A stretch of DNA of 63,982 bases, the filler included, from Dimargaris cristalligena (lineage: Eukaryota): NCBI GenBank assembly GCA_003614675.1. It is 3 parts of 3 records of this genome, joined end to end, with 100 filler letters (N's around TTAATTAATTAA, not from the genome) between each part and the next. Parts side by side here need not be neighbours in the genome. Positions count along the whole stretch, not along the records: positions 45,447 to 63,982 come from ML002763.1; 2 more parts are not named here. One strand, 5' to 3'. Positions 40,939 to 63,982 of this stretch are shown here, piece after piece. The number at the start of each line of letters is the position of its first letter. Position 1 is the stretch's first letter. A program made the position numbers and the translations under genes. The notes under the pieces were generated by a model. That model did no database searches. It saw nothing but the letters and a program-made list of their open reading frames with translations, and was not told the DNA's origin.

Positions 40939-42000
40939 TTAGTTGGAAAGGACCACGCGGTACCGCACCTTGCCGTCACGAACCCGTTGGATACCTTCAT
41001 TACACTGGTCCATTGGCAGGGTTTCAATCCACGGACGGACATTATGCTCGGCCGCGAAATCGAGCATAGCCCGGACTTCCTTGATACCACCAATCAACGA
41101 GCCCACGATTCCCACGTTGTTAGCCAGGAAAGATAAAGGCTTAAGCTTCAGCTCAGTTTCGGGGGCAGCCAACAAAACAATCAGCCCGTAGACATCCATA
41201 AAACTAATCAACTGGGCCCAGTCGGTGTGGGGCGAGTTGGTGGTGACAATCAGGTAATCGAGGGATTGGGAGGCAGTCTTGCTTTGTTCGGCGTCGCGCA
41301 GGTTAACCACCTGGGTAGCACCGAGTTTGACACATTCCTCGCGCTTGGTTTCGGAAGTGGTGAAGGCGGTGACACTGACACCGAAGGCCTTGGCGAATTG
41401 GACCGCCAGATGACCGAGACCACCGATGCCAACTATTCCCACCCGGTCACCCGTCTTGAACTTGTAGTGCAGCATAGGGGTGAATACCGTAATACCGGCG
41501 CACAAGAGAGGAGCGGCTTCGCGGGGGTCAATCGCAGTGGGGATACTGAACGCATAGTTGGCGTCGACGCGAACGGCATCGGCGTAGCCGCCCTTGGACC
41601 GCTCACCATCGGGGTACGGCTTGTTATAAGTATACACCGCGTGGGAGCATTGCACATCATGGCCCCGTCGGCAGTTCTTGCAATCGGGCTTCTGGCAAGA
41701 GAAGACCTGGGCGCCTACGCCGACTAAGTCACCGATGGCATGGTCCTGCACTTCGGCACCCTTGGCCACCACCCGGCCGACAATTTCATGGCCGACAATC
41801 ACGGGGTATTGGGTGGGTCCCCAGCCACTGTCGATGGTGTGGATGTCCGAACCACAAATGCCACAATGGTCGATTTTGATTTCAATGTCGTTGGGGCCTA
41901 GGGGACGGGACTTGTATTGCCAAGGCACCAGCGGCTGGTTCTTGCCCATAGCGGCGTAGCCGCTGATCATACGGGATTCGGAGGAGTTGGAAGCGGTCAT
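40939..42000 (-). CDS. NADP-dependent Zn alcohol dehydrogenase, copy 2
   Basis: Same 353-aa length and motifs as copy 1; high similarity. Confidence 0.95.
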   Translation of the reverse strand: MTASNSSESRMISGYAAMGKNQPLVPWQYKSRPLGPNDIEIKIDHCGICGSDIHTIDSGWGPTQYPVIVGHEIVGRVVAKGAEVQDHAIGDLVGVGAQVFSCQKPDCKNCRRGHDVQCSHAVYTYNKPYPDGERSKGGYADAVRVDANYAFSIPTAIDPREAAPLLCAGITVFTPMLHYKFKTGDRVGIVGIGGLGHLAVQFAKAFGVSVTAFTTSETKREECVKLGATQVVNLRDAEQSKTASQSLDYLIVTTNSPHTDWAQLISFMDVYGLIVLLAAPETELKLKPLSFLANNVGIVGSLIGGIKEVRAMLDFAAEHNVRPWIETLPMDQCNEGIQRVRDGKVRYRVVLSN

Positions 42001-42121
42001 GGTGAGTGCAGTGCGGGGGAGTAATAAGAGGGTGGGTTATTCAAATCTAGTCTCGAGCAGATGAGTGGTACTATGGCCGATGACTGGTGTGGTAAGTGAG
42101 GTTAAGCGAGGAATACCCGCC

Positions 42122-42129
42122 TATTTATA
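42122..42129 (-). promoter_or_regulatory. TATA box of ADH copy 2
   Basis: TATAAATAGG about 120 nt upstream of the ATG. Confidence 0.6.
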
Positions 42130-43382
42130 TTGGAATGGTCGACCCATTTTAACAAGGGATACAGGGCAGTGGACCATGAAGAGGAATTAAATTAAATAAA
42201 CATGGGTTACTTTCACTAAAAGGGCTTGATGAGCCTGCTTGCCCACACTACAATGGCCAACTGGGGTTTTTGCCGAACTAGAAAGGCATGTGGCTCACAA
42301 AAATAACCAACTGGTTGAAAGACTTACGTTTTCCACCGAGAGGGGTAGTCATTTTGGGATTGGCCCGCCCACAGTGGCCAATAGAGGGACGGGCGGATAT
42401 TTTACTACATAGTTGGAGAGAAGCGGCCAGTGCGGACAATTATTTAGAGTTTTCATTGGTATGGGTGCGTTAGAGAATATAATTGGTTTATATTTACCGT
42501 GTCTCTAACGGATGTGTGGGATGCTACTTGGCTAGCGGGGAGTTTGAAAGGAACCCATCACCTCTCCAAAAACCGAAGTGAAACGTAAGCTATAAACGTC
42601 AGGAAAGAATGGATTACTAGCTTTACGTCACTCTTAGCCATTGATAAACTTTCCTGATTCGGTGGTCGGAAGTGTATGTCCACTCGGTTAAAGTTACTGT
42701 GGCATTTGAAATTTCCCTCCAAATGCGGTCGGGCTTGGTACATTTGAGCCATTTCCTTTTTAAATCATTCATTATTTCCGAAAAAAATCCCCGAAATTAT
42801 GAGACCCACTTTCGAATATCCCCATACATAAATGATTTACAGAGTTCGGTTTTTTCTCTCCGGCTCATAACGGTACTTGGCTGGGCTGCGATGCTTGGAC
42901 CCGTGTAGATGTTCTGTTCAACGTTCCACTTAAAATAAACCCTCGACCGCCGGCTAATTACACCCGGGCATTTATCCGTGGGTATTGTAAAAAACCACTG
43001 TTAGATCCCCTATATTATAGCCCCTGTTATGCCGGAAGAATGGCCTTTGCACCACCTTGCCAATGCTAAGTTAGTAACTCCTTTCAAAACATCCGGATAC
43101 GTAATTTGAAAAGTGGCTGGGTAAAGTAACACGTAGTGAGAAAGCTGACTAATTATGTGTTAATCCCTATAATGCGCTGTACATCCGATAGAGCCGGAAG
43201 GCCAGCTTCACTATCCTTATAGTAGATTTCCTGTCTGTCCGGATAAAATGGCTTATGGGTTGAACAGGCCATACCGGTTAACATTGCACTATTGGCTAAA
43301 TTTGACTGTGTATATTTCATTAAAAACGCGATATTATGATGCCAAAACGAAAGTGGTTCGGCCCAGTTGCAAAGGACCATTG

Positions 43383-43526
43383 ATATGGGAGAAGTTCATT
43401 TAGGCTGTATAACGAAAAATCCATTGGATGAGGCTAATATTACTGGTTAAAAGATATTCTCACATATATTCATTCATACACGTATTATGTAAAACCTTAT
43501 ACAGCTGGTTTGAATTTCTTCCATAT
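43383..43526 (+). repeat. Dispersed ~145 bp repeat, copy C
   Basis: ATATGGGAGAAGTTCATTTAGGCTGTATAACGAAAAATCCATTGGATGAGGC...TGAATTTCTTCCATAT. Confidence 0.85.
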
Positions 43527-44249
43527 TATGATTGAATGGACTAATATGAAGTTCCCTTTATGTGTTCATGTCAAGGGGGTAACAATAGAGACATAGCGAC
43601 CAACCTTTCGAAGTATTGTCAGTAAAATATATCTCCTACACTAGTATTTTGGTCAATATAAAAGTTGTTGGCACTCTCTCTGTGCTAAACTATACCCGAA
43701 TGTACTTGTTTCCTATACTGTCAAATAACGAAGGCTCTGCTATACCGCGAAGACTTGGTATATGGTTTTTTTATTGTTGACATTTACGGATAAAAGTTTT
43801 AGAATCTAGAATCCTCTATGAAGCAATTATAATGGCGGATCTGCCCGGAACCCTCAAATAATATTGGGTGTACATAATTGGACACAAAATGCCCTCGAGT
43901 CTCTGTTCAGGAATGGTAGAGGATACTTTAACAAATGAGTGACGTTTTAGGTGGGGGCTTACTAATCCAATAAAAGTGCGATTGAGAAATATACACTGGC
44001 TATAAACTACAGTATTATAAAACCCGGAAGAATGGTCTACATGTCTTTGATCGCCCCTTGTCTCTTAAATAAAGCCAAGTGGGAGAGGCCAAGTTTTGTA
44101 GGTGACATCGAATCAAAGCCATGGCTGTGACAGTTACTTGTATTGGTATATTAATTTAGACTATCCCCCCCCACTTCCGCAGGCGATTACAGAAAGGAGT
44201 CTTTACTTCACAAACAGCAAACGATATTGACGTAAGCGCTATTGAGTAA

Positions 44250-44939
44250 GTGGCACTATATGCTGCCCAACCTATTCTAAATTCTCCTTGGTTTCCTTGG
44301 GCAGTACTAAGCAATGTAGAGGTTGAGGAAATACACTCAGTTGGAGCTGTAGCTTCCAATTACATACCCATAAAAAAGTAAATGTAAGTGATACTCCTGT
44401 TTATGGAGACATACTTAGATCTGAGGGATGTTGGGTTACATAGACCAAACACCACATCAGAGACAATCATTGACAACTGCATCCTTTCTGGTATAAATGA
44501 TTGCCAGTAGTAGGTGCCTTCAACATTTATCATGCCCAATGGACAAGACCATGGTTCACAAAATTTCAGCTGCCCAGTACTTTAGCACAGCCCACATGTA
44601 TTAGTTCCCAGTGGGGATATACCAGTAATTTATCATATTAGGTATAGAGATGGAGCAATTATAATTTAGAAAAGAAAATATATGTCTGAGGATAAATAAA
44701 TGGTAGGTAGTAGAATACCATTTCAGGGATATCTTCAAAAAATGACATAATTAGTTGTTAGAATGTACCAAGCTGTGAATGTTAGCCATAATTCCTTAGA
44801 TAAGATGTCTTCCCAAGAGGCCCCTATCATAGTAACCCCAATTGAGCCAAGTGCATAAGCAGGTACAGGATATCACATAAAATTATCTAGTTGGTGCAAT
44901 TGTTTTGTCTGGTGTTCCCAGTGGAGGGTGAGGAACCAG
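44250..44939. mobile_element. CpG-free transposon relic
   Basis: No CpG seen over about 700 nt; ends in purine-rich GGAGGGTGAGGAA just before the LTR-like repeat. Confidence 0.5.
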
Positions 44940-45135
44940 TGTCACAGAGTGGTGGTATCAGGCCACTAAAATGAACAATAAAATTATATCAAAAGGGCAG
45001 GGTGGCTTCTCCAGGCAAACTAGTTTGTCACTCAATTGAAAATACTAATAAAACCAGCCGTATAATGTTTTTAACCAAAGTAATCTAATATGAAAAATAC
45101 TTATTTGGAAGCCCAAAAGGTTGGTCCTTGGTGTC
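44940..45135 (+). repeat. LTR-like repeat, copy 2
   Basis: Homologous to 22450-22650. Confidence 0.75.
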
Positions 45136-45346
45136 ACCCAGTGTGGTGAACTTACCACATTTTTCACCTATTTTTATTTTTTTATCTATTTTTCACACTT
45201 ATCAGAAGTACGCCCCTGATAAGTGAATGAGCCCCTGCCCCTGATGAGTATAGTCATTTTTCCTCCATTTTTATTATTATATTGTTTTTCCTATTATTAT
45301 ATTTTATACACTTAACTATGATGTACCCCTGCCCCTAACCAGATGA

Positions 45347-45446
45347 NNNNNNNNNNNNNNNNNNNNNNNNNNNNNNNNNNNNNNNNNNNNTTAATTAATT
45401 AANNNNNNNNNNNNNNNNNNNNNNNNNNNNNNNNNNNNNNNNNNNN
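45347..45446. other. Artificial contig linker
   Basis: 44 N + TTAATTAATTAA + 44 N, identical to the first linker. Confidence 0.97.
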
Positions 45447-46482
<1,036 letters not shown>

Positions 46483-52074: not shown

Positions 52075-52084
52075 GTCACGTGAT
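52075..52084. promoter_or_regulatory. E-box/Cbf1-type site upstream of RPL31
   Basis: GTCACGTGAT; related sites at 56085 and 62233. Confidence 0.45.
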
Positions 52085-52914
52085 TTACCATCAACAGGGC
52101 TAAATGGTAAGGTTAGTGAGCGAGCAAGCGTATTAGTTAGCTGGCTGGGAGGAAGGAATACCGCAGTGTGTGGGTAGATATTGGGAAAGTTACTCGGTTT
52201 GGAGGTGGTGGTACTTTGAGAGGTGGGCCAAAATGGGAGCAGGACCTAGGCGGGTCAAATAATGTGTTGGTGGTGTGGCAGTCTGCCCATCCTAAGGTCG
52301 AGGCCAATATTACGTTGGCATGCCCTGTCCATCGTCGAATCCCCCTCTTCCTTCTTGTACTATTTACTACGCCCCGTCGAGGTAAGGCCCATAGCCCCCC
52401 CGATATCTAATCGTCGGGTCGCGCTTACAGCCTACCCCTACCCACAACCTTCCAATCCCTTCGCACCTTCTTCGCCGTCACTGTTACCACCGTTGGTTCG
52501 AATGGATTACGACAGTCAGGCGTAAGAGACTGTCATCCGCAACCATGGCCATCCATCCATCCATCCGTTCACCGTGTGGCACAGCCACCTTATTTCAAAT
52601 ATTGGGTAGAGCCTCTGGACTTATAGTGATGGTGAATGGCGGACAAACGGATGGATAGACTGTATCTATTCGAGTTACCTCGTTACTGATGGTGCGACTG
52701 AAGCAGAGGTTGTGGTCGGAAGGCGCGCTGACCCGAACGAAAGTGAATCCGCATTTTGAATCGACATGGAACCGTGAACGGATTCTGATGTCCATACATT
52801 CCTTCCCCGCCCTTGAATCCACCTAACGACTTGCCTCTTGTTTATTTATTGACCACCTCGTATTTCCGCCCTAGGTATTAGAAAATATACAGCACCCTCT
52901 ACACAATAGCCAAA

Positions 52915-53280
52915 ATGGTGAAGGCCAAGCATACTAAGCGTTCCGCTCTTTCCGAGGTTGTCACTCGCGAGTGCACCATCCACCTGTCCAAGATGGTCCG
53001 TGGTGTTCAGTTCAAGAAGCGCACCCCCAAGGCCATGGACGCCATCCGGAAATACGTCCGCCAGGACATGGGCACCACCGAAGTCCGCATCGACCCCGGT
53101 CTCAACAAGTTCCTGTGGTCTACTGGTGTCAAGGCCATCCCTTCCCGTCTGCGCATCCGCATGTCCCGCAAGCGTAGCGACGAAGATGACAGCGCCAACA
53201 AGCTGTACACCGTCGTGACCTACGTGCCCGTTGCCTCTTTCAAGGGTCTGGAAACCGAAGTCGTTGACGAAGAAGAGTAA
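52915..53280 (+). CDS. RPL31: 60S ribosomal protein L31 (eL31); probable 5'UTR intron about 52500-52874
   Basis: EVVTRECTIHLSK, FKKRTPKA, VRIDPGLNKFLWSTG, KLYTVVTYVPVASFKGL. Confidence 0.97.
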   Translation: MVKAKHTKRSALSEVVTRECTIHLSKMVRGVQFKKRTPKAMDAIRKYVRQDMGTTEVRIDPGLNKFLWSTGVKAIPSRLRIRMSRKRSDEDDSANKLYTVVTYVPVASFKGLETEVVDEEE

Positions 53281-55109
53281 AAATAGCGAGCGCGCGTTCA
53301 CTCCCTCTTTTTTTCTAATCGCGATTGCACACCTTCCCTCTTCCTACCACTTTCTCGCCATAATCGATCTTAAAGTATCATTTTGCCGCAACCCCCCTCC
53401 TCCCCTTCCAATAAATTCCGTCCGGTTTCTTAATTATGGTTTTTGATGTAGAGAATGTTTATAGTATTATCAATTGATTAAATTGCTCTTGATATATCCC
53501 ACAGTAGTTATTCTTAACTAGGCTGTATTGTAGGATGGTTGATTCGGATAACAAAAGTGCACTATGTTTTCACTTATTTGGAGGGTTCAGGACGGGCCAA
53601 TTTGACATTGACATCGTTTGCGCTCATGCTACTGTTACGATGTGGATTTTGATTTCAATGGAGATCCTATTCGAAGCATTTGCGATCTAAATACCAACAG
53701 GAAGATCTTTATATATTATAAGGCATTTTAACTGCTCAACTCCTTATTTAGAATGGCCGAGTATAACATTGAACAGTACTCTGAAATTAAGGTCAGCTAA
53801 ATGCAGGAGTGGGTCAGTTGATTTCCCAACTATAAGAAGTATGATGCGATTCCGTGCGCCTCATTAGTCTTACGCTAGGCCTGAGGAGGGTCAGTATTAT
53901 TGATAATTTACCGGGCAGGGAAAGTATACACCAGGTAGATAATTCAATTACTATACCACGAGGATATTAAGAGTCGGGGATTAATTGTGCTCTAATATAT
54001 TGAATATTCCGGGCATGTGAGGGTAGTTTAATTTGGCTAGTAACTGGCCATCACCTACTTGGCGGTGCAACTTCACTGGGGGGCGGGGGCGAGCGATCAT
54101 TCGGTTTTTGGGTGGTTGGCCCCATCCAGTGGTTGTATTGTTAACCGTCGGATATGTAGAAGTGTGTAGAGATTTCAAACTCAATCTCCTATTTGAGCGC
54201 TGGACAAGGTATTGATTAGAATCGAACCGGGCTAGCATGACTTATATTTCATCCTTGATGATATAATACTAACTAATCGTCTAATATGGTTCAGCAATGC
54301 CTTGGAGACTGGTATCAAGGGTCTTATTATAATGAGTGGGTCATTGCGGAATGGGTGCCTCGAAATGCCCGATCACCGGTATGTTGATCGACTAACCTCG
54401 AGTATGACTTTGTAGAATTTATCTACTCGAATGGCTTGTCTGTGGTATAATTTCATCCCAATGCCTGATCAGTGTTCGATTTGTTGATATTCGACCGATT
54501 TCTCTGGCATGCTTTAAACAATTGGGACGAATCTCTAGAATCGTCCGATAGTATCAAATCTCATCTTAGCTCGATTCCCCAGTAGCATCGGTTGAATATT
54601 AAATGTCAATCGGAATGTAGTAATTTAGATGTCCAGTATTAATGTACGACTCTAGTAATATCAGCCCATTCCGAAAGAAGAGGTTAATTACAATGCAACA
54701 TATAACCCAAGACTCAGAAAAGAAATCTAATGCAGAGTTATTGTCAGAGCACCCCACACGAATCCCTGGATAATCTAGAACCATAGTGACTGCCTGATTC
54801 AATTTAAATCTGAAATGATTTATTAGCACTAACGCCGATTACCAAACAATTAATCACACACTCCCTGGCATTGAAAATGACCGATAAGCCAGATTACAAC
54901 GAAAATCTATGCTAACATTTTATTTCCATGGAATACAAGTGGTTTAATGAATAAAAACAAATATATTAGCATAGAACCGACCGCGAAATGGGTTATATGA
55001 AGAGTTACGCATCTCAAGGGGTCAGGTAAGCTTGACGCATGGAAAGATAAGGGAGGAGACGAGGGAGAAGGAGATACGGAAAGGTTTGGGGACTAATAAC
55101 ACAACTCAT

Positions 55110-55928
55110 CTAGGCCTTGATGGCGTAGACGCGCTGGGGGAAAGCCAGCTCCTTCTTCTGCTGACGCAGAGTGCGGTTGGACAGCTCCTTGGGGGTCAGG
55201 CGACGACGGATGGCGCGGGTCTGCTTAGCGCGGAGGTCCAAGGGCATGTACTTCTTGCCCTTGTAGAATTCGCGGAGCTGCTGGCGCTGGGTCTGGGTGA
55301 TGACAGTCAGGACACGGCCAATGTTCTTGCGGGCATCCCGGATTTTGGAGCCCTTGCCGCCAGTGTTGGAGGCACGCTGAGCCCGGAGGCTGGCGAGCTC
55401 GCCCTTGAGGGTCTCGAGGGTGGAGGTCAGTTCGACCTTGGACTTGCCGCGGAGTTCGTGAGCCTTGACTTTAGCCTAAGGAGAAGAATGAGAGAAAGGA
55501 AAGGATAGATAGAAGCTATAGTTAGTTATACGGGTCGGTCAGCATGTACAAGATGGAATCCCAGTAGCCGGCAGGGTGGAATCTTGAAGTTCACATGACA
55601 AGATTCCTTCGGCTGAGGGATGCGTGCCACTGGCTATTCTCGTTGCACCATCGGTGGCGGTTCCATTACGAGGTCTATTCGGACACGGATTCGCAAATAC
55701 ATAATCATCCATCCATCCTGGACACGGTCGCTAAGAGCTGGTAATCCGTTCGAGTTGGGTCGGATATTGTCACGGAACGAGAGGTCGGATATCGACATGG
55801 TCGATGGACAGCGGTTTCCTCGGTTCATCGGATTCGGCAGCTGGGGCTTCATTCGTAGGTTCGATGGGCGTACGGATGGATGGATGGATGACAGCAGCGT
55901 CGCTTACGGGGGGATGGTCGCTTACCAT
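55110..55928 (-). CDS. RPL35: 60S ribosomal protein L35 (uL29); exons 55928-55926 (ATG only), 55475-55110
   Basis: Manual translation [14 protein letters not shown]...[11 protein letters not shown]...[24 protein letters not shown]...[10 protein letters not shown]; absent from the ORF track because the ATG is on its own exon. Confidence 0.96.
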
Positions 55929-56084
55929 TTCAAAGGTATAATGTTATTGAATGGGTAGGGTGCAGGGGGATGAAGAGAAGGAGCCCACCCAAAATGCCCA
56001 GCAATGATGTTTAATAATTAGGTTTGGCTATATTGGATCTTCTGTTTGGCTTGTACTGGACTTGGTCTCAATAAGCCAGTTCCC

Positions 56085-56092
56085 CACGTGAC
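56085..56092. promoter_or_regulatory. E-box/Cbf1-type site in the RPL35-DIM1 divergent promoter
   Basis: CACGTGAC. Confidence 0.45.
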
Positions 56093-56263
56093 CTTGATCT
56101 CAGGCTGCCTTGCTATTCCCAGTGGGCAGTTTGTGAGGGAATAGGGGAGGAGGGGCTTGGTTCGCTCCCATCTCCCTTGCAACGGGTGTTGGGATGCATC
56201 ACACCTACACACACATAATATCCAGGCTAACACAAAATGTGAAAAAAAGAGAAATAAACTTGA

Positions 56264-58037
<1,774 letters not shown>

Positions 58038-58700
58038 ACTATATTGGTTACTTTTGGTCGATTGCCTGTGTAGCCTCTAGTGTGCTTTGCTGCTGACTGT
58101 ATCGACCTGGATGGATTCCACCTGGTAATGATGGACATCTAATACAGTTATTATGCCTTTATCGAAATAATAAATTTTAGTAGTACGATTGATTGTTAGT
58201 CACGGACATGTTGGACGAGGGTATTAAGGCCCCCCCTTCTTTGAAACCCTAACCCACCCTATAACTTAATCAACCAACTATACTGACTAATTACATTATC
58301 GAATGATGGTGCGGAATGAGCAACATCACGTGCCCGACTGGTCGGACCTAAACAGTCTAGCAAGTAGTGCAGCAGGTAGGAGTAATAATAAGTATAGTGT
58401 TGGTTATTGATTATTGGGACGATAAGGCCATATAATTAGAGCCAGTGGTAGCTATGAGATGCAAGGGAGTGGGACCTGAAATGAGATATGTCTTACCCCG
58501 TCTGCATGCCCGCAACCAATGGCCCAAAGAGATACCCACGTATTACGGACACGGCAGCTGTTGGGGCGCGGTCGCTGCTTCCTCTTCTTATACCCGCCAC
58601 CACGATACGTGTTTTATAGCACCCCTCCTCCTCTTGTTGCCTTCACTTCCTTTGCCCCGCCCATTCCCACTCGACCTATTTCCCGTTCATTACCGTTGCC

Positions 58701-59853
58701 ATGTCGACCCCCACTGACCAGTCTGTCCTTCACCAACTATGCCAGCTCGTCGATTGGCACCAACCCACCCTGTGGTACGCCGTGGCCTGCATCCTGTTCA
58801 ACCCGTTGTTCTGGAACATCGCCGCTCGCCAAGGTGGGTGACTGTGGTTAATATACTACCACCAGCGTATGACTAACCCCCTCACACTCAGTGTTTCTTG
58901 TCAAGACTGGTGACGGGTCCCTTTTAACGGAGTGACGCATTTTAAAAATGGAACAGCTTCATAACTACTGCCATCTTTTCCGCAACCCCCTCGGTCATAA
59001 GAAACCAGTGATATCTAATCTAATAGTATGTCGCCAAATGCCCTTGGCGGATACCCTCGATTACTCCTCATATATAATCTTATTTCCCCCCATTAGAATA
59101 CCGCCATCACTGGATCACCAAGTTGGCCTGTGGTAATGCCTACGTAGGCTGCTACATGCTGGCCATTACCATCTTCTCGCTGGGTATCTTCCGCGATGCT
59201 GTGTAAGTACAATCCCTCCCCCCCTACTACCCCTTCCGAGCTTGATCATCGGATTGTTTCTCAGGTGAACTAATGATTCTAATTATATTGGTGCTGATTG
59301 CTCATTTCGGAACTGCTCAGCTACAACCTGGCTCTAGACCACCAGCCCACCGCCGCCTTCCTGGCCTATGGCGAGATCAAGATTGTCGCTGCTGCCCTGT
59401 GGGCCGTCGGTATGCTGCTAGTGTTGACCTCCACCTACCAGCTTGGAATCACCGGTACTTATTTGGGCGACTATTTCGGCATCTTAATGAACGCCAAAGT
59501 GACCAAATTCCCTTTCAACGCCACCAACAACCCCATGTACCAGGGATCTACCCTCGCCTTCTTGGGTGTGGCCCTCTGGAAAGAATCTGTGGCCGGACTT
59601 ATCTTGTCGGTCCTGGTTTTCGTGGTCTACTCGATTGCCTTGCACTTCGAAGAGTAAGTGAATCCATGGATAGTATTGCCAAACATGTTTTATTCACCTA
59701 AATCGGTGACCAGTCGCTGCAGATAGCCCCTTTATACTTATACATATCTATATCTATTTTAATTGCCCTGGATTCTCCTCGATAATGGCATCCCACTTGT
59801 ACTTTAGGCCCTTCACCAACATGATCTACGCTAAACGCGAGAAGTCCTCTTAA
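58701..59853 (+). CDS. OPI3: Phospholipid N-methyltransferase (PEMT); exons about 58701-58833, 59096-59201, 59321-59653, 59808-59853
   Basis: ILFNPLFWNIAARQEY, GCYMLAITIFSLGIFRD, LGITGTYLGDYFGILM, FPFNATNNPMYQGST, FEE|PFTNMIY. Confidence 0.94.
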
Positions 59854-60520
59854 CTTGTTGGAAAACTTACCTATTCAAATCTAGTCCCAGTTGGTTGCTG
59901 CCCAGTCTCCAGCACCGCGGACACTTTTATTACTCAGTCATTGTCCGTCACGGCACATTTGTATTCATTACTTTACCAATGCCTTTGTAGATATCTGGTA
60001 CCACCAATACACCCGACTGTTTACCACCACCACTCATGTATCTGGTTATTTGTAATGTTAGAAAGTAATGGGGCTGGGATTCACATATCTATGGGCTATG
60101 GAATCGGCTCCAACATTAGCCGGTTGAGCAACGGAGTCCCCCAGTGAACGCTCTCGTAAATGATAGGTTGATGGCTTGCCTATGCATTACAAATCGGGAA
60201 CCGTCGCCTAAGAGTAAATGGGACAGGCCATTAGTAAGAAGGGTTACTCCTGGACAATTGGGTATCCCCCCCCTTGACCCTGGGTCTCAGGTGGATAACG
60301 ATTCCACTGTCCTCCCCTTCCCAGCGGGGCTGTTGTTATACCACGGCTGACGGAAGTAGTGCGGAGTCCCTCGAACTAGACCGAGTTTTACTTCCCGAGT
60401 CACTCCGACTACCTATCCTATTTATTGCCGGGCTTTCCCCGCGGGACTTGGCTTAACCACCAACGACATTCCCCTCTGGCTCAACCGTCCTCATTCCACC
60501 TTCATTTACCTCCTGTAACC

Positions 60521-61795
60521 ATGGCCCAGAACTCCGCAACGTATACCATTGGCTGGGTCGGACTAGGCAACATGGGTCTACCCATGGCCCAAAACCTCCA
60601 GTCCCTACTGTCCCAGGCCGCCGCCAACGCCGAAGTTGCGGGCCGCCTCCCCTTTCCCGTCCACCCCAGTCTGGTGGTGTACAACCGTACCCAGGCCAAG
60701 TGTGCTTCCGTAGTCGAATTGGGTGCTACGGCTGTCTCGTCCGTCGCCGAGGTGGCCCGCACCTGTGACTTGATCTTTACCAGCCTAACCAACGACCAGA
60801 CCGTTCGGTCGGTCTATAACGAGCTGCTGCCCACCCTCCGGGCCCGCCAGGAACAGGGACTGTTACAGACCCGCTCCGTATTCCTAATCGAAACCAGCAC
60901 CACGTCGCCCCAATTGGCTACTGAGCTCAGCAGCCAGGTCCAGCTGCTCGCCTCCGGCCAGTCGAGTAACCATCCCGTGTATTTCCTCCGCTGTCCCGTC
61001 TTCGGCGCCCCCGTCGCGGCCCAGAGTGCCAGCCTGGTCTGGGTGCTCTCCGGGCCCGCCCCGGCCTGTGTGGCGTTGAAGAGTATAGTGATCCCCGCCC
61101 TAGGCCGGGGTGCCATTGAGGTGGGCGAAGACCCGGTCCAGGGATCCAATATGAAGCTATTGGGTAATTTTTTTATCGGCAGTACAGTCGAAACCCTCTC
61201 CGAAGCGGCCGTGCTGGCTGAAAAAGCGGGCCTGGGGACGGCCAAGATGGCGGAATTTGTCGAGTGGATGTTCCCCTTTGGTACGTACCTTCTCTACAGC
61301 CGTAAGATGGTACGCCCCGAGGAGCGTCACTTACTTAACTCCCCCGCCGGTCCTAGCGCCCCGCCGGCTTCGACCCCTGCGAACCCTAATGGTGGTGGTT
61401 CCTTTCTCCACGCCGGCCCGGCCCGTAGTCACCCCCTGCCTCCGGCGGCCACCCGTTGCGTCGGCGTGGGTTCCACCACCCCGGTGAGCACCCCCGGGGC
61501 CGATGACGAGCCTAATCCACTAGCCCAGCCCGACGGGTTTATTACGGACGTGGGCTTCTCGATTGACCTGTGTCTGAAGGACGTCAACTTGATTCGGGAG
61601 TTGGCCCGTAAAAACAACTGCCAACTTCCCACTATGGATGCTTTCCACCGCCACTTAACAACGGTGCAGAGCAGAGGGCATAACGACTGGGACTGGTCAT
61701 CCGCCGTCGCGGCCTTGCGCTGGGAAGCTGGCCTGCCGGGGTATTACAATGACACCACCTTTCCCAAACCCGATGGAAACCTCCACCAACCGTGA
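60521..61795 (+). CDS. Beta-hydroxyacid dehydrogenase (3-hydroxyisobutyrate/6-phosphogluconate dehydrogenase family)
   Basis: IGWVGLGNMGLPMAQNL, VYNRT, ETSTTSP, CPVFGAP, MKLLGN, GFSIDLCLKD, DWSS. Confidence 0.9.
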   Translation: MAQNSATYTIGWVGLGNMGLPMAQNLQSLLSQAAANAEVAGRLPFPVHPSLVVYNRTQAKCASVVELGATAVSSVAEVARTCDLIFTSLTNDQTVRSVYNELLPTLRARQEQGLLQTRSVFLIETSTTSPQLATELSSQVQLLASGQSSNHPVYFLRCPVFGAPVAAQSASLVWVLSGPAPACVALKSIVIPALGRGAIEVGEDPVQGSNMKLLGNFFIGSTVETLSEAAVLAEKAGLGTAKMAEFVEWMFPFGTYLLYSRKMVRPEERHLLNSPAGPSAPPASTPANPNGGGSFLHAGPARSHPLPPAATRCVGVGSTTPVSTPGADDEPNPLAQPDGFITDVGFSIDLCLKDVNLIRELARKNNCQLPTMDAFHRHLTTVQSRGHNDWDWSSAVAALRWEAGLPGYYNDTTFPKPDGNLHQP

Positions 61796-62658
61796 GCCAC
61801 CCTTCAATAACCTCGTTTATTTGCGATCGTGATGGGTCGACCCACCAATGGCGGATATATGCTTCCTATTGGGCTGTTCGCTGTTTTTATATTAATAATC
61901 CCCACACCCACCACCATCCATGTCCGATTATATACGTAATAAACCCTCTAGTTGAAATATCGGTTTCAAAGTTGGGTTGCTGTGTGCATATCCTTCGTAT
62001 ACCAAATTGTACAGTAAATTAAAATGAGAGCGTGGGTGATGTATATGGCCATTGGAAGTGTTTGCCATGGCGCATTAAATAGCCTGGCTGCATGTTGACG
62101 GGAATGCTGTGAGGGAGGGGGAGTCATTGGGTGGTGGTGGTGGTTTTACCAGCGCACCAGGCCTTTAGACAGGCAGGATAAAAAAGAAGTGGTTGGTTAG
62201 TCAGATGGCTGGTTGAAGGGCTGGGTGTGCAGGTCACCTGACTGGAATTGCACTCACGGGACCTTAAATAAGAATAGTGAGGCCCAAATGGTCTTAGAGT
62301 ACGAAAAAAAATAGGAGGACTCAGTGTGGTGGGTGTGGTAGTATGTGTGTAAAGGTGGTCTCTCTTTTCACCAAGACCAGGTTAGGCGGGGCAAAGAATG
62401 GGTGGCTCGTAGGCCCAAAAGAGTCGGTGTCGCATGGATAGGCGGCCAGAGCAGGGAAAAAATTACCAAGAAGAGGCGGGGACTCAGAAACTGGGCTGGG
62501 AGGCAAAAAGAACCGGGTGGTAAAAGAAGACAGCGCCAGCCGCCCGATCTAGATTCCCCCTCTTTCCCTTCTGTGTTGTCCCCTGTTGGAATCAACTTAT
62601 TCCTCACACCCTTCCCATCTAAGCGGATCTCCCCCTTCTGCTTCGTATATCCTCCAAC

Positions 62659-63630
62659 ATGGTTAGTCTGTCCAGCCAAAAGCGCCTGGCCGCCAGTATC
62701 CTTAAGTGCGGTGAACGCAAGATCTGGTTGGACCCCAATGAAGCCACCGAGATCGCCAATGCCAACTCTCGTAAGTCACTGCTGCCTTTTATAATACCTC
62801 TCCTCTAGCCTTCTATAGGAGCCCACCGAGGAGATCCGTAACCCCTCGCACCCTACTCCGTGTTTCTATAAGACGAAGTTTGATAGATCCGGTCGCCGAC
62901 CATCTCCCTCCCCAAAACCTAACTCGACGACCGACTTGGTCGAACAGATCTATGGTGTCTGGTACAACGGACCAAGTCGGTGTTCCTTCGGTGGAGGATC
63001 CTTCGGGGCGATCCGACCGAAGTTCATCTTTATCCCCGTTACCACCACTACTACTACTATTTTACCAAGCCTGTAAGACCGCCCCACCACCGCCTTATTA
63101 CCGTACCCGTCTTAACCCCCATTTTATATTTATATTTTTTTTCTACACCCTATGCTCATTGCTCGAACCCCACAGGCCAGCACATCCGCAAGATGATCAA
63201 GGATGGTCTGATCTTCCGCAAGCCCCAAACTATTCACTCCCGCTACCGCGTCCGTGAGTACCAGGCTGCCAAGCGTAAGGGCCGTCACACCGGTCTGGGT
63301 AAGCGTCAGGGTACCTCCGAGGCCCGTATGCCCACCAAGATCCTGTGGATGCGCCGCCAGCGTGTGCTCCGTCGTCTGCTCCGCAAGTACCGCGAGGCTG
63401 GTAAGATCGACCGGCACCTGTACCGTACCCTTTACCTGAAGGCTAAGGGTAACGCCTACAAGAACAAGCGTGTGTTGGCCGAATACATCCACAAGGCCAA
63501 GACCGAGAAGGCTCGTCTGCAGGCTCTGGCCGACCAGGCCGAGGCCCACCGTATCCGCAACAAGGCTGCCCGCGAGCGTCGTGAAGTTCGTCTCCAGGCT
63601 AAGAAGGAGGCCCTGTATGGCTCTAAATAA
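62659..63630 (+). CDS. RPL19: 60S ribosomal protein L19 (eL19); exons 62659-62770, 63176-63630
   Basis: [28 protein letters not shown]...[42 protein letters not shown]. Confidence 0.97.
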
Positions 63631-63982
63631 ATGGGTCAATATCCTTTTGGCATAAACCCACCACCACCCTACCCCTCTTTTCTCCCCCAACCGTCAATGC
63701 CCTGTCCATCCTATAATCCAATAAACCGTTGCCTGATCCCCTCCTCTACTTATTTTTAATTCCTTCTTCACTTTGCTTGCCGTTGGAAGCATGAGTGGAG
63801 AGGTGATCACCGAATTATAGTTTTGGGCTCTTCATTTTGGCAACTTTTTTTACTACCAATAACATTTACTCTTTTTTTACTGGTATTATATATACGGGAA
63901 AACAGTTTGTACGTCTTGCATTAAACCCTGTGGTTTCGAATGTTGGTAGAGGGGCAAATTGGGCACGATTGAGTGGAGAAGT

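Follow-up and report, generated by a model that had tools for sequence, protein, structure and literature searches.

(CCAT)n tracts with intronic complements in RPL35 and RPL31 of Dimargaris cristalligena: candidate long-range helices in ribosomal protein pre-mRNAs

Introduction

Long-range base pairing within ribosomal protein (RP) introns has been described in Saccharomyces cerevisiae, whose RP introns carry zipper stems and long stems; a zipper stem is defined as a helix of at least 6 bp between the donor and the branch point, with a total linker of 42–85 nt (PMC12350175). In the RPL7B intron, a zipper that enhances splicing alternates with a mutually exclusive, protein-bound structure (PMC12311795). 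Furthermore, a structured RNA motif, rpl7-l8-s3, occurs in the introns of different fungal RP genes (PMC5640933).

The window analyzed here, i.e., the whole stretch of 63,982 bases of eukaryotic, fungal-type nuclear DNA, contains the RP genes RPL35, RPL31, and RPL19. The introns of the first two contain a (CCAT)n tract shortly past the donor and complementary sequence farther 3′. The leading, still tentative explanation is that RPL35 and RPL31 pre-mRNAs would form long-range intron helices of the type known in yeast, in a lineage-specific version. The locus resembles the yeast zipper and long stems (PMC12350175) in having long 5′-proximal RP introns with potential long-range helices that start just past the donor; it differs in that the arms consist of a tetranucleotide repeat common to two genes, in that the organism lies outside Saccharomyces, and in that the helices are known here by prediction. 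The candidate helices of RPL35 (15 bp) and RPL31 (11 bp and 10 bp) all exceed the 6 bp of the zipper definition, whereas the linker range of that definition fits the RPL31 distal helix (35 + 37 nt) and not the RPL35 15-bp helix (approximately 33 + 178 nt). Because the end of the latter lies approximately 178 nt before the branch point, it would be a “long stem” rather than a zipper, and under the same linker rule no helix beyond 4–6 bp was found in RPL35 or RPL19.

The RPL31 layout, in which one 5′ arm has two exclusive candidate partners, one of them adjoining the branch point, recalls the RPL7B switch (PMC12311795). The likeness is one of sequence layout only: neither RPL31 helix is favored in the predicted ensemble, whereas the RPL7B switch is accompanied by protein binding, a non-consensus branch point, and cross-species conservation. 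Similarly, rpl7-l8-s3 recurs among the introns of RP genes that are not homologous, although it is built from two long hairpins whose covariation spans 25 species (PMC5640933), whereas the present motif has two copies in one genome and is without an Rfam match. The preliminary description of this DNA had not recognized the architecture as a described one; the motif itself was indeed not found in the literature searched, whereas its kind is known, both as long-range stems and as structured motifs shared among RP introns. RPL35 and RPL31 are unmentioned in PMC13232506, PMC8216456, and PMC5640933, supplementary tables aside.

Gene Context of the RP Introns

The features of the three RP genes are collected in Table 1. 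Pfam assigns the product of RPL35 exon 2 to Ribosomal_L29 (E 1.4e-14). RPL31 and RPL35 lie on opposite strands approximately 2.2 kb apart, and the leader intron of RPL31, as drawn here from the sequence, is putative. A gene for a Dim1-type rRNA dimethylase starts at 56264, divergent from RPL35, and this gene and the three RP genes are clustered in approximately 11 kb (52300–63700). The RP introns (353–450 nt) are two to three times as long as the non-RP introns that could be delimited, which measure 130–203 nt (203 nt and approximately 130–160 nt in the Dim1-type gene; a CDP-diacylglycerol synthase gene has one of 190 nt). Baker’s yeast likewise has long RP introns at the gene’s 5′ end, as do RPL35, RPL31, and RPL19 here. 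In two metagenome loci with a low-GC, yeast-like RPL35 (L001 and L006), the intron also directly follows the ATG and carries a TACTAAC-type branch site; the position of the RPL35 intron is therefore old and common to distant fungi, even if its content is not.

Table 1. Positions of the RP genes, introns, motifs, and candidate helices in the window.
Feature	Position	Strand	Description
RPL35/uL29 first intron	55476..55925	minus	450 nt, GT-AG, phase 0, immediately 3′ of ATG (55928-55926)
RPL35 exon 2	55475-55113	minus	363 nt; stop codon 55112-55110
RPL35 first donor 9-mer	55917..55925	minus	G at exon position -1; gives the canonical protein
RPL35 second donor 9-mer	55899..55907	minus	Identical to the first; 18 nt downstream (start to start), in frame
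RPL35 5′ tract	55872..55894	minus	23 nt; shared 9-mer running into (CCAT)n with CCGT end; (CCAT)n at intron positions 34-52
RPL35 15-bp helix (candidate)	5′ arm 55892-55878; 3′ arm, (GGAT)n, 55704..55718	minus	14 Watson-Crick pairs and 1 G-U pair
RPL35 donor-covering helix (predicted)	55921-55913 with 55645..55653	minus	5′ arm at intron positions 5-13; in MFE structure; probability 0.65-0.96
RPL35 local hairpin (candidate)	55558..55621	minus	9 + 5 + 5 bp, small internal loops
RPL35 branch-point consensus	55521..55526	minus	ACTAAC; 45 nt 5′ of acceptor
RPL31/eL31 5′-UTR (leader) intron (putative)	52522..52874	plus	353 nt; drawn from sequence
RPL31 donor hairpin (candidate)	52511..52534	plus	7 bp; donor in 10-nt loop
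RPL31 donor and shared 9-mer	52522-52538	plus	Shared 9-mer itself at 52530-52538
RPL31 (CCAT)n with CCGT end	52549-52568	plus	Intron positions 28-47
RPL31 proximal helix (candidate)	52559-52569 with 52646-52656	plus	11 bp, perfect; loop of 76 nt
RPL31 distal helix (candidate)	52563-52572 with 52774-52783	plus	10 bp, perfect; about 40 nt before branch point; linkers 35 + 37 nt
RPL31 CTAAC box	52823-52827	plus	47 nt 5′ of acceptor
RPL31/eL31 CDS	52915-53277	plus	Unbroken by introns; Pfam Ribosomal_L31e, E 5.4e-32
RPL19 intron	62771..63175	plus	405 nt; gene start 62660; comparison intron
RPL19 ATCCGT box	62834	plus	Single copy
RPL19 mid-intron hairpin (candidate)	62930-62941/62970-62981	plus	12 bp, perfect; 28-nt loop

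A Motif Common to the Starts of the RPL35 and RPL31 Introns

The motif strings of the preliminary description were all recovered at their coordinates, on the transcript (minus) strand for RPL35. They include the RPL35 donor duplicated 18 nt apart (55925–55917 and 55907–55899), and the reported resemblance of the RPL31 leader to the start of the RPL35 intron holds as well, with a similar donor, the shared 9-mer, and the (CCAT)n tract at 52522–52568. The donor 9-mers of the two genes are near-identical and differ at position 6. The (CCAT)n run with its CCGT end constitutes an identical 19-mer in the two introns, on the sense strand in both. Three (CCAT)n tracts of at least 10 nt exist on either strand of the 63,982 bases, and all three lie inside the RPL35 and RPL31 introns; the 14-mer (CCAT)n pattern had five overlapping matches against 0.03 expected, with as many in none of 100 shuffles. 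Aligned locally, the two introns reach a score of 38, whereas shuffles average 18.5 and none of 300 equaled it; nor did any of 500 shuffles equal the 9-mer that precedes the tract in both introns. Beyond the shared motif region the two introns did not align, and a global MAFFT alignment of them was uninformative.

The motif is confined to two of the three RP genes. Shuffled sequences aligned as well as the RPL19 intron did with the RPL35 intron in 193 of 300 cases and with the RPL31 intron in all 300, and the (CCAT)n tract is absent from the RPL19 intron. A cis-regulatory architecture common to RP genes, as had been proposed, is not shown: the long intron of RPL19 is without the tract, and the placement of the partner differs in the other two, being mid-intron in RPL35 and both proximal and branch-point-proximal in RPL31. 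What RPL35 and RPL31 do share, a non-random motif at the 5′ end of the intron with a complement farther 3′, is consistent with a cis-acting element of the intron. The hexamer ATCCGT/ACGGAT, with which the tract ends and which recurs in both orientations, occurs at 26 sites in the window, seven of which fall in the three RP introns; its density there (1.9% of the stretch) is approximately 19-fold that elsewhere, as counted after the motif had been seen.

A scan of metagenome sequences for the composite of donor, shared 8-mer, and (CCAT)n returned no stretch. The RPL35 protein search of metagenome contigs yielded 53 loci, the nearest at most 61–68% identical and the best near-full-length one 61% identical. 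Among the 25 of these loci whose match starts at query residues 1–5, none has (CCAT)3 within 700 nt upstream, and four have a single ATCCGT/ACGGAT site; the divergence of these loci is too great for their introns to be aligned.

Long-Range Complementarity and Intron Folding

A complementary (GGAT)n tract in the same intron as (CCAT)n had been noticed in both genes, and it was confirmed in RPL35 (55718–55706) and in RPL31 (52647–52656). The RPL35 15-bp helix would pair intron positions 34–48 with 208–222 and enclose a loop of approximately 159 nt; it appears in both the MFE and the centroid structure, with a predicted pair probability of 0.58–0.68, and it was counted as a 14-bp perfect inverted repeat in the stretch-wide scan. 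In the MFE structure of RPL31, the tract pairs with the proximal partner in a slipped register, and the probability of the exact 11-bp register is approximately 0. The distal helix would exclude the proximal helix because both need the same 5′ arm. None of 200 shuffles reached the 10 Watson–Crick pairs of the distal helix, although 8.5% did if G-U pairs were allowed, and in the full-length ensemble it would pair with a probability of approximately 0. The duplex between the RPL31 5′ end and branch-point region has a predicted energy of −29.0 kcal/mol versus −19.6 ± 3.7 kcal/mol for shuffled sequences, 0.8% of which were as good. RPL31 alone beat the shuffles in this 5′-to-branch-point duplex test, in which RPL35 and RPL19 were worse than shuffles.

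Leaving out a TA microsatellite, perfect inverted repeats of at least 11 bp within 450 nt occupy 13 loci in the window, of which three lie in the three RP introns (1.9% of the stretch), the RPL35 15-bp and RPL31 11-bp candidates being among them; at a length of at least 12 bp, two of seven loci lie there. Inverted repeats of 10 bp occur in the stretch at about the random rate.

The additional stems of the preliminary description are all present, although two of them, the RPL35 7-mer pairs 55782–55776/55644–55638 and 55749–55743/55691–55685, are no better than chance: approximately six complementary 7-mer pairs are expected by calculation in any 450 nt, and both pairs cross the 15-bp helix. The RPL35 hairpin at 55621–55558 has a predicted energy of −23.1 kcal/mol (z −2.93; as good in 1 of 200 shuffles) as a segment picked post hoc, and the RPL19 hairpin, in a 61-nt segment picked after inspection, has a z of −3.23. 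The RPL31 donor hairpin is weak (−9.9 kcal/mol, z −1.86; as good in 14 of 200 shuffles), and its 3′ arm belongs to the motif in common with RPL35. The predicted helix 55921–55913/55653–55645 covers positions +5/+6 of the first RPL35 donor and not the second. For the three RP introns as wholes, the MFE was no better than that of dinucleotide shuffles (z −0.95, +0.63, and +0.48). The graph distance from donor to branch point, calculated on MFE structures only with 60 shuffles for each of the three introns, was no shorter than in shuffles (28 vs. 35 ± 18, 33 vs. 34 ± 17, and 6 vs. 38 ± 20).

Possible Functions of the Shared Motif

From these elements, we infer a role in splicing, for which both helix formation in vivo and an effect on the reaction would be required. 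The (CCAU)n-CCGU tract, located approximately 30–50 nt past the donor in RPL35 and RPL31 pre-mRNA, would base-pair with the (GGAU)n/ACGGAU complement farther 3′ in the same intron, and the resulting long-range helices would loop out 76–200 nt, thereby shaping the presentation of donor and branch point to the spliceosome. The RPL31 5′ arm would have two mutually exclusive partners, one proximal and the other approximately 40 nt before the branch point. A functional element is favored because the joint pattern is hard to obtain by chance: the RPL35 and RPL31 tracts are alike in strand, distance from the donor, CCGT ending, and preceding 9-mer, each has a complement in its own intron, and the other 62.8 kb are without the tract. 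Weighing against helices in the pre-mRNA, besides the folding results above and the tract-free RPL19 intron, are the presence of the motif in two introns only and the nature of the repeat, a microsatellite, which can arise by slippage.

Slippage is also the core of the neutral alternative, in which (CCAT)n would have expanded in two long, weakly constrained introns, perhaps aided by a local exchange of sequence, the two genes being 3 kb apart, and the complements and stems would be functionless. The identical 19-mer is indeed mostly tetranucleotide repeat; outside it the introns are unalignable, and the number of 8-mers shared by the 1-kb regions of RPL35 and RPL31 is near the approximately 17 expected. 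The agreement of whole-intron folding with shuffles, the chance-level 7-mer and 10-mer complements, and RPL19, which lacks the tract, point the same way. This coincidence is nevertheless considered somewhat unlikely, as it must account at once, in two RP genes, for strand, donor distance, CCGT end, 9-mer, and complement, and the sequence exchange would require conversion of otherwise unrelated introns without flanking homology. An origin from a MITE or transposon was rejected, as what lies between the inverted tracts cannot be aligned from one intron to the other and no target-site duplication was seen. Alternatively, the tract and the ATCCGT boxes may act in DNA, binding an RP-regulon transcription factor whichever way they are oriented and forming an intronic enhancer just past the start. 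This explanation is unlikely, and it retains weight because the boxes occur in both orientations at the increased density in RP introns noted above, because the three introns all start within approximately 100 nt of likely start sites, and because the RPL35 copy fits the 8-nt core (CAYCCRTA) of the Rap1 consensus (PMC2585575); furthermore, the promoters of these genes have other RP-type motifs in common. Compared by eye with that consensus, core matches of 8–9 nt are located at 55879–55872 and near 62833–62841, but only the core fits and the flanks mismatch. Yeast Rap1-type sites are located 160–500 bp upstream, and yeast RP introns are not enriched in RP factor motifs (PMC2585575), whereas the present sites lie inside first introns, and both points speak against a site of this kind. 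Pairing in the pre-mRNA is preferred to a DNA site because each of the two RPL31 partners fits a different flank of the sense copy, a feature that a short core site would not need and that pairing would explain more simply than independent protein sites, and also because the helices are long and perfect.

Two further alternatives concern the RNA itself. The introns of RPL35 and RPL31 may host a snoRNA or another ncRNA, with the tracts as external processing stems; RP introns carry snoRNAs in other fungi, the RPL35 hairpin at 55621–55558 looks stable, and the tracts flank 76–159 nt. By contrast with the intron-encoded snoRNAs of fungal RP genes, which share the location in RP introns and for which flanking complements could likewise be external stems, these introns have neither a box C/D pair with terminal stem nor an Rfam snoRNA match. 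At the gathering threshold, Rfam found nothing in the whole stretch; at E up to 10, it found nothing interpretable in the three RP introns and no snoRNA on the transcript strand, the rows of snoRNA families being only on the opposite strand or outside the introns and all far below gathering. The box scan used the box C and box D consensus sequences and demanded that the boxes be joined by a terminal stem of at least 4 bp. No exact box C turned up in the three RP introns, and all nine candidate C/D pairings contained a single box mismatch, with at most 3 bp of terminal stem. On inspection, neither the internal loops of the RPL35 hairpin nor how far it lies from the nearest ACA suits H/ACA geometry, and the loop sequences enclosed by the tracts are unrelated between the two introns. 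An intron-hosted ncRNA family, as the preliminary description had suggested, finds no support in Rfam matches, box patterns, or whole-intron folding, and a hosted RNA is judged highly improbable. In the case of regulated donor choice in RPL35, the helix over the first donor would shift splicing to the second, yielding a protein extended by six residues or else a U1 decoy. The identical 9-mers, in frame and without an intervening stop, so that the second donor adds six codons, are consistent with such a choice, as is the predicted pairing (0.65–0.96) that covers the first donor only. The first donor makes the canonical protein, however, because the N-terminus is then M-A-K-V, as in a metagenome locus (L007), and this N-terminus requires that donor; the second donor has C rather than G at exon position −1, its in-frame product offers no decay-based regulation, and RPL31 has one donor only. 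Donor choice is thus distinctly improbable as the explanation. Recursive or twin-intron splicing at the second RPL35 donor was rejected, as no AG precedes that donor.

Should the long-range helices of RPL35 and RPL31 be functional, splicing of long RP introns with the help or under the control of RNA structure would reach outside the Saccharomyces clade, in which it has been worked out, and one element in two different RP genes would hint at coordinated rather than gene-specific control. An improbable extension of this proposal is that (CCAU)n-CCGU with AUCCGU/ACGGAU constitutes a lineage-specific RNA regulon signal that sets the splicing rates of several RP genes together, via a common factor or via helix competition that selects among alternative long-range helices, and in RPL35 maybe also selects donors; coordinated post-transcriptional control of RP genes would then operate by a shared intron code instead of gene-by-gene autoregulation. 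If the tracts are mere microsatellites, they advise caution, as low-complexity repeats that happen to be complementary can look like designed stems.

Upstream Regions and Other Features of the Window

The regions upstream of the RP genes share several short motifs. RPL31 and RPL35 have in common, arranged in the same order, an E-box 8-mer with a CACGTG core (52075–52082 and 56092–56085), the 9-mer GGGCTAAAT (52097–52105 and 56460–56452), and the 9-mer CCCTACCCA (52436–52444 and 55960–55952), which resembles the HomolE box (PMC10253590). RPL31 and RPL19 share TAGGCGGG (52247–52254 and 62383–62390), a sequence similar to the IFHL motif in reverse complement (PMC10253590). Together, these upstream motifs look like the promoter grammar of an RP regulon. 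The 10-mer that runs across the start codon and donor of RPL35 (55930–55921) recurs in the RPL31 upstream region at 52102–52111, beside GGGCTAAAT, probably by chance.

Elsewhere in the window, an open reading frame at 45460–46482 (minus strand) encodes a phosphofructokinase N-terminus, with Pfk_N followed through to position 38 of the PFK domain. Runs of N at 45347–45390 and 45403–45446 adjoin its end, and downstream on the same strand (42000–45460) no open reading frame of at least 30 aa gave a PFK match at E up to 0.01. Either truncation of the gene or a hidden remainder may account for this. Two similar open reading frames for zinc-type alcohol dehydrogenases, at 36621–37736 and 40939–42036 (both minus strand), approximately 4 kb apart, look like a tandem duplication.
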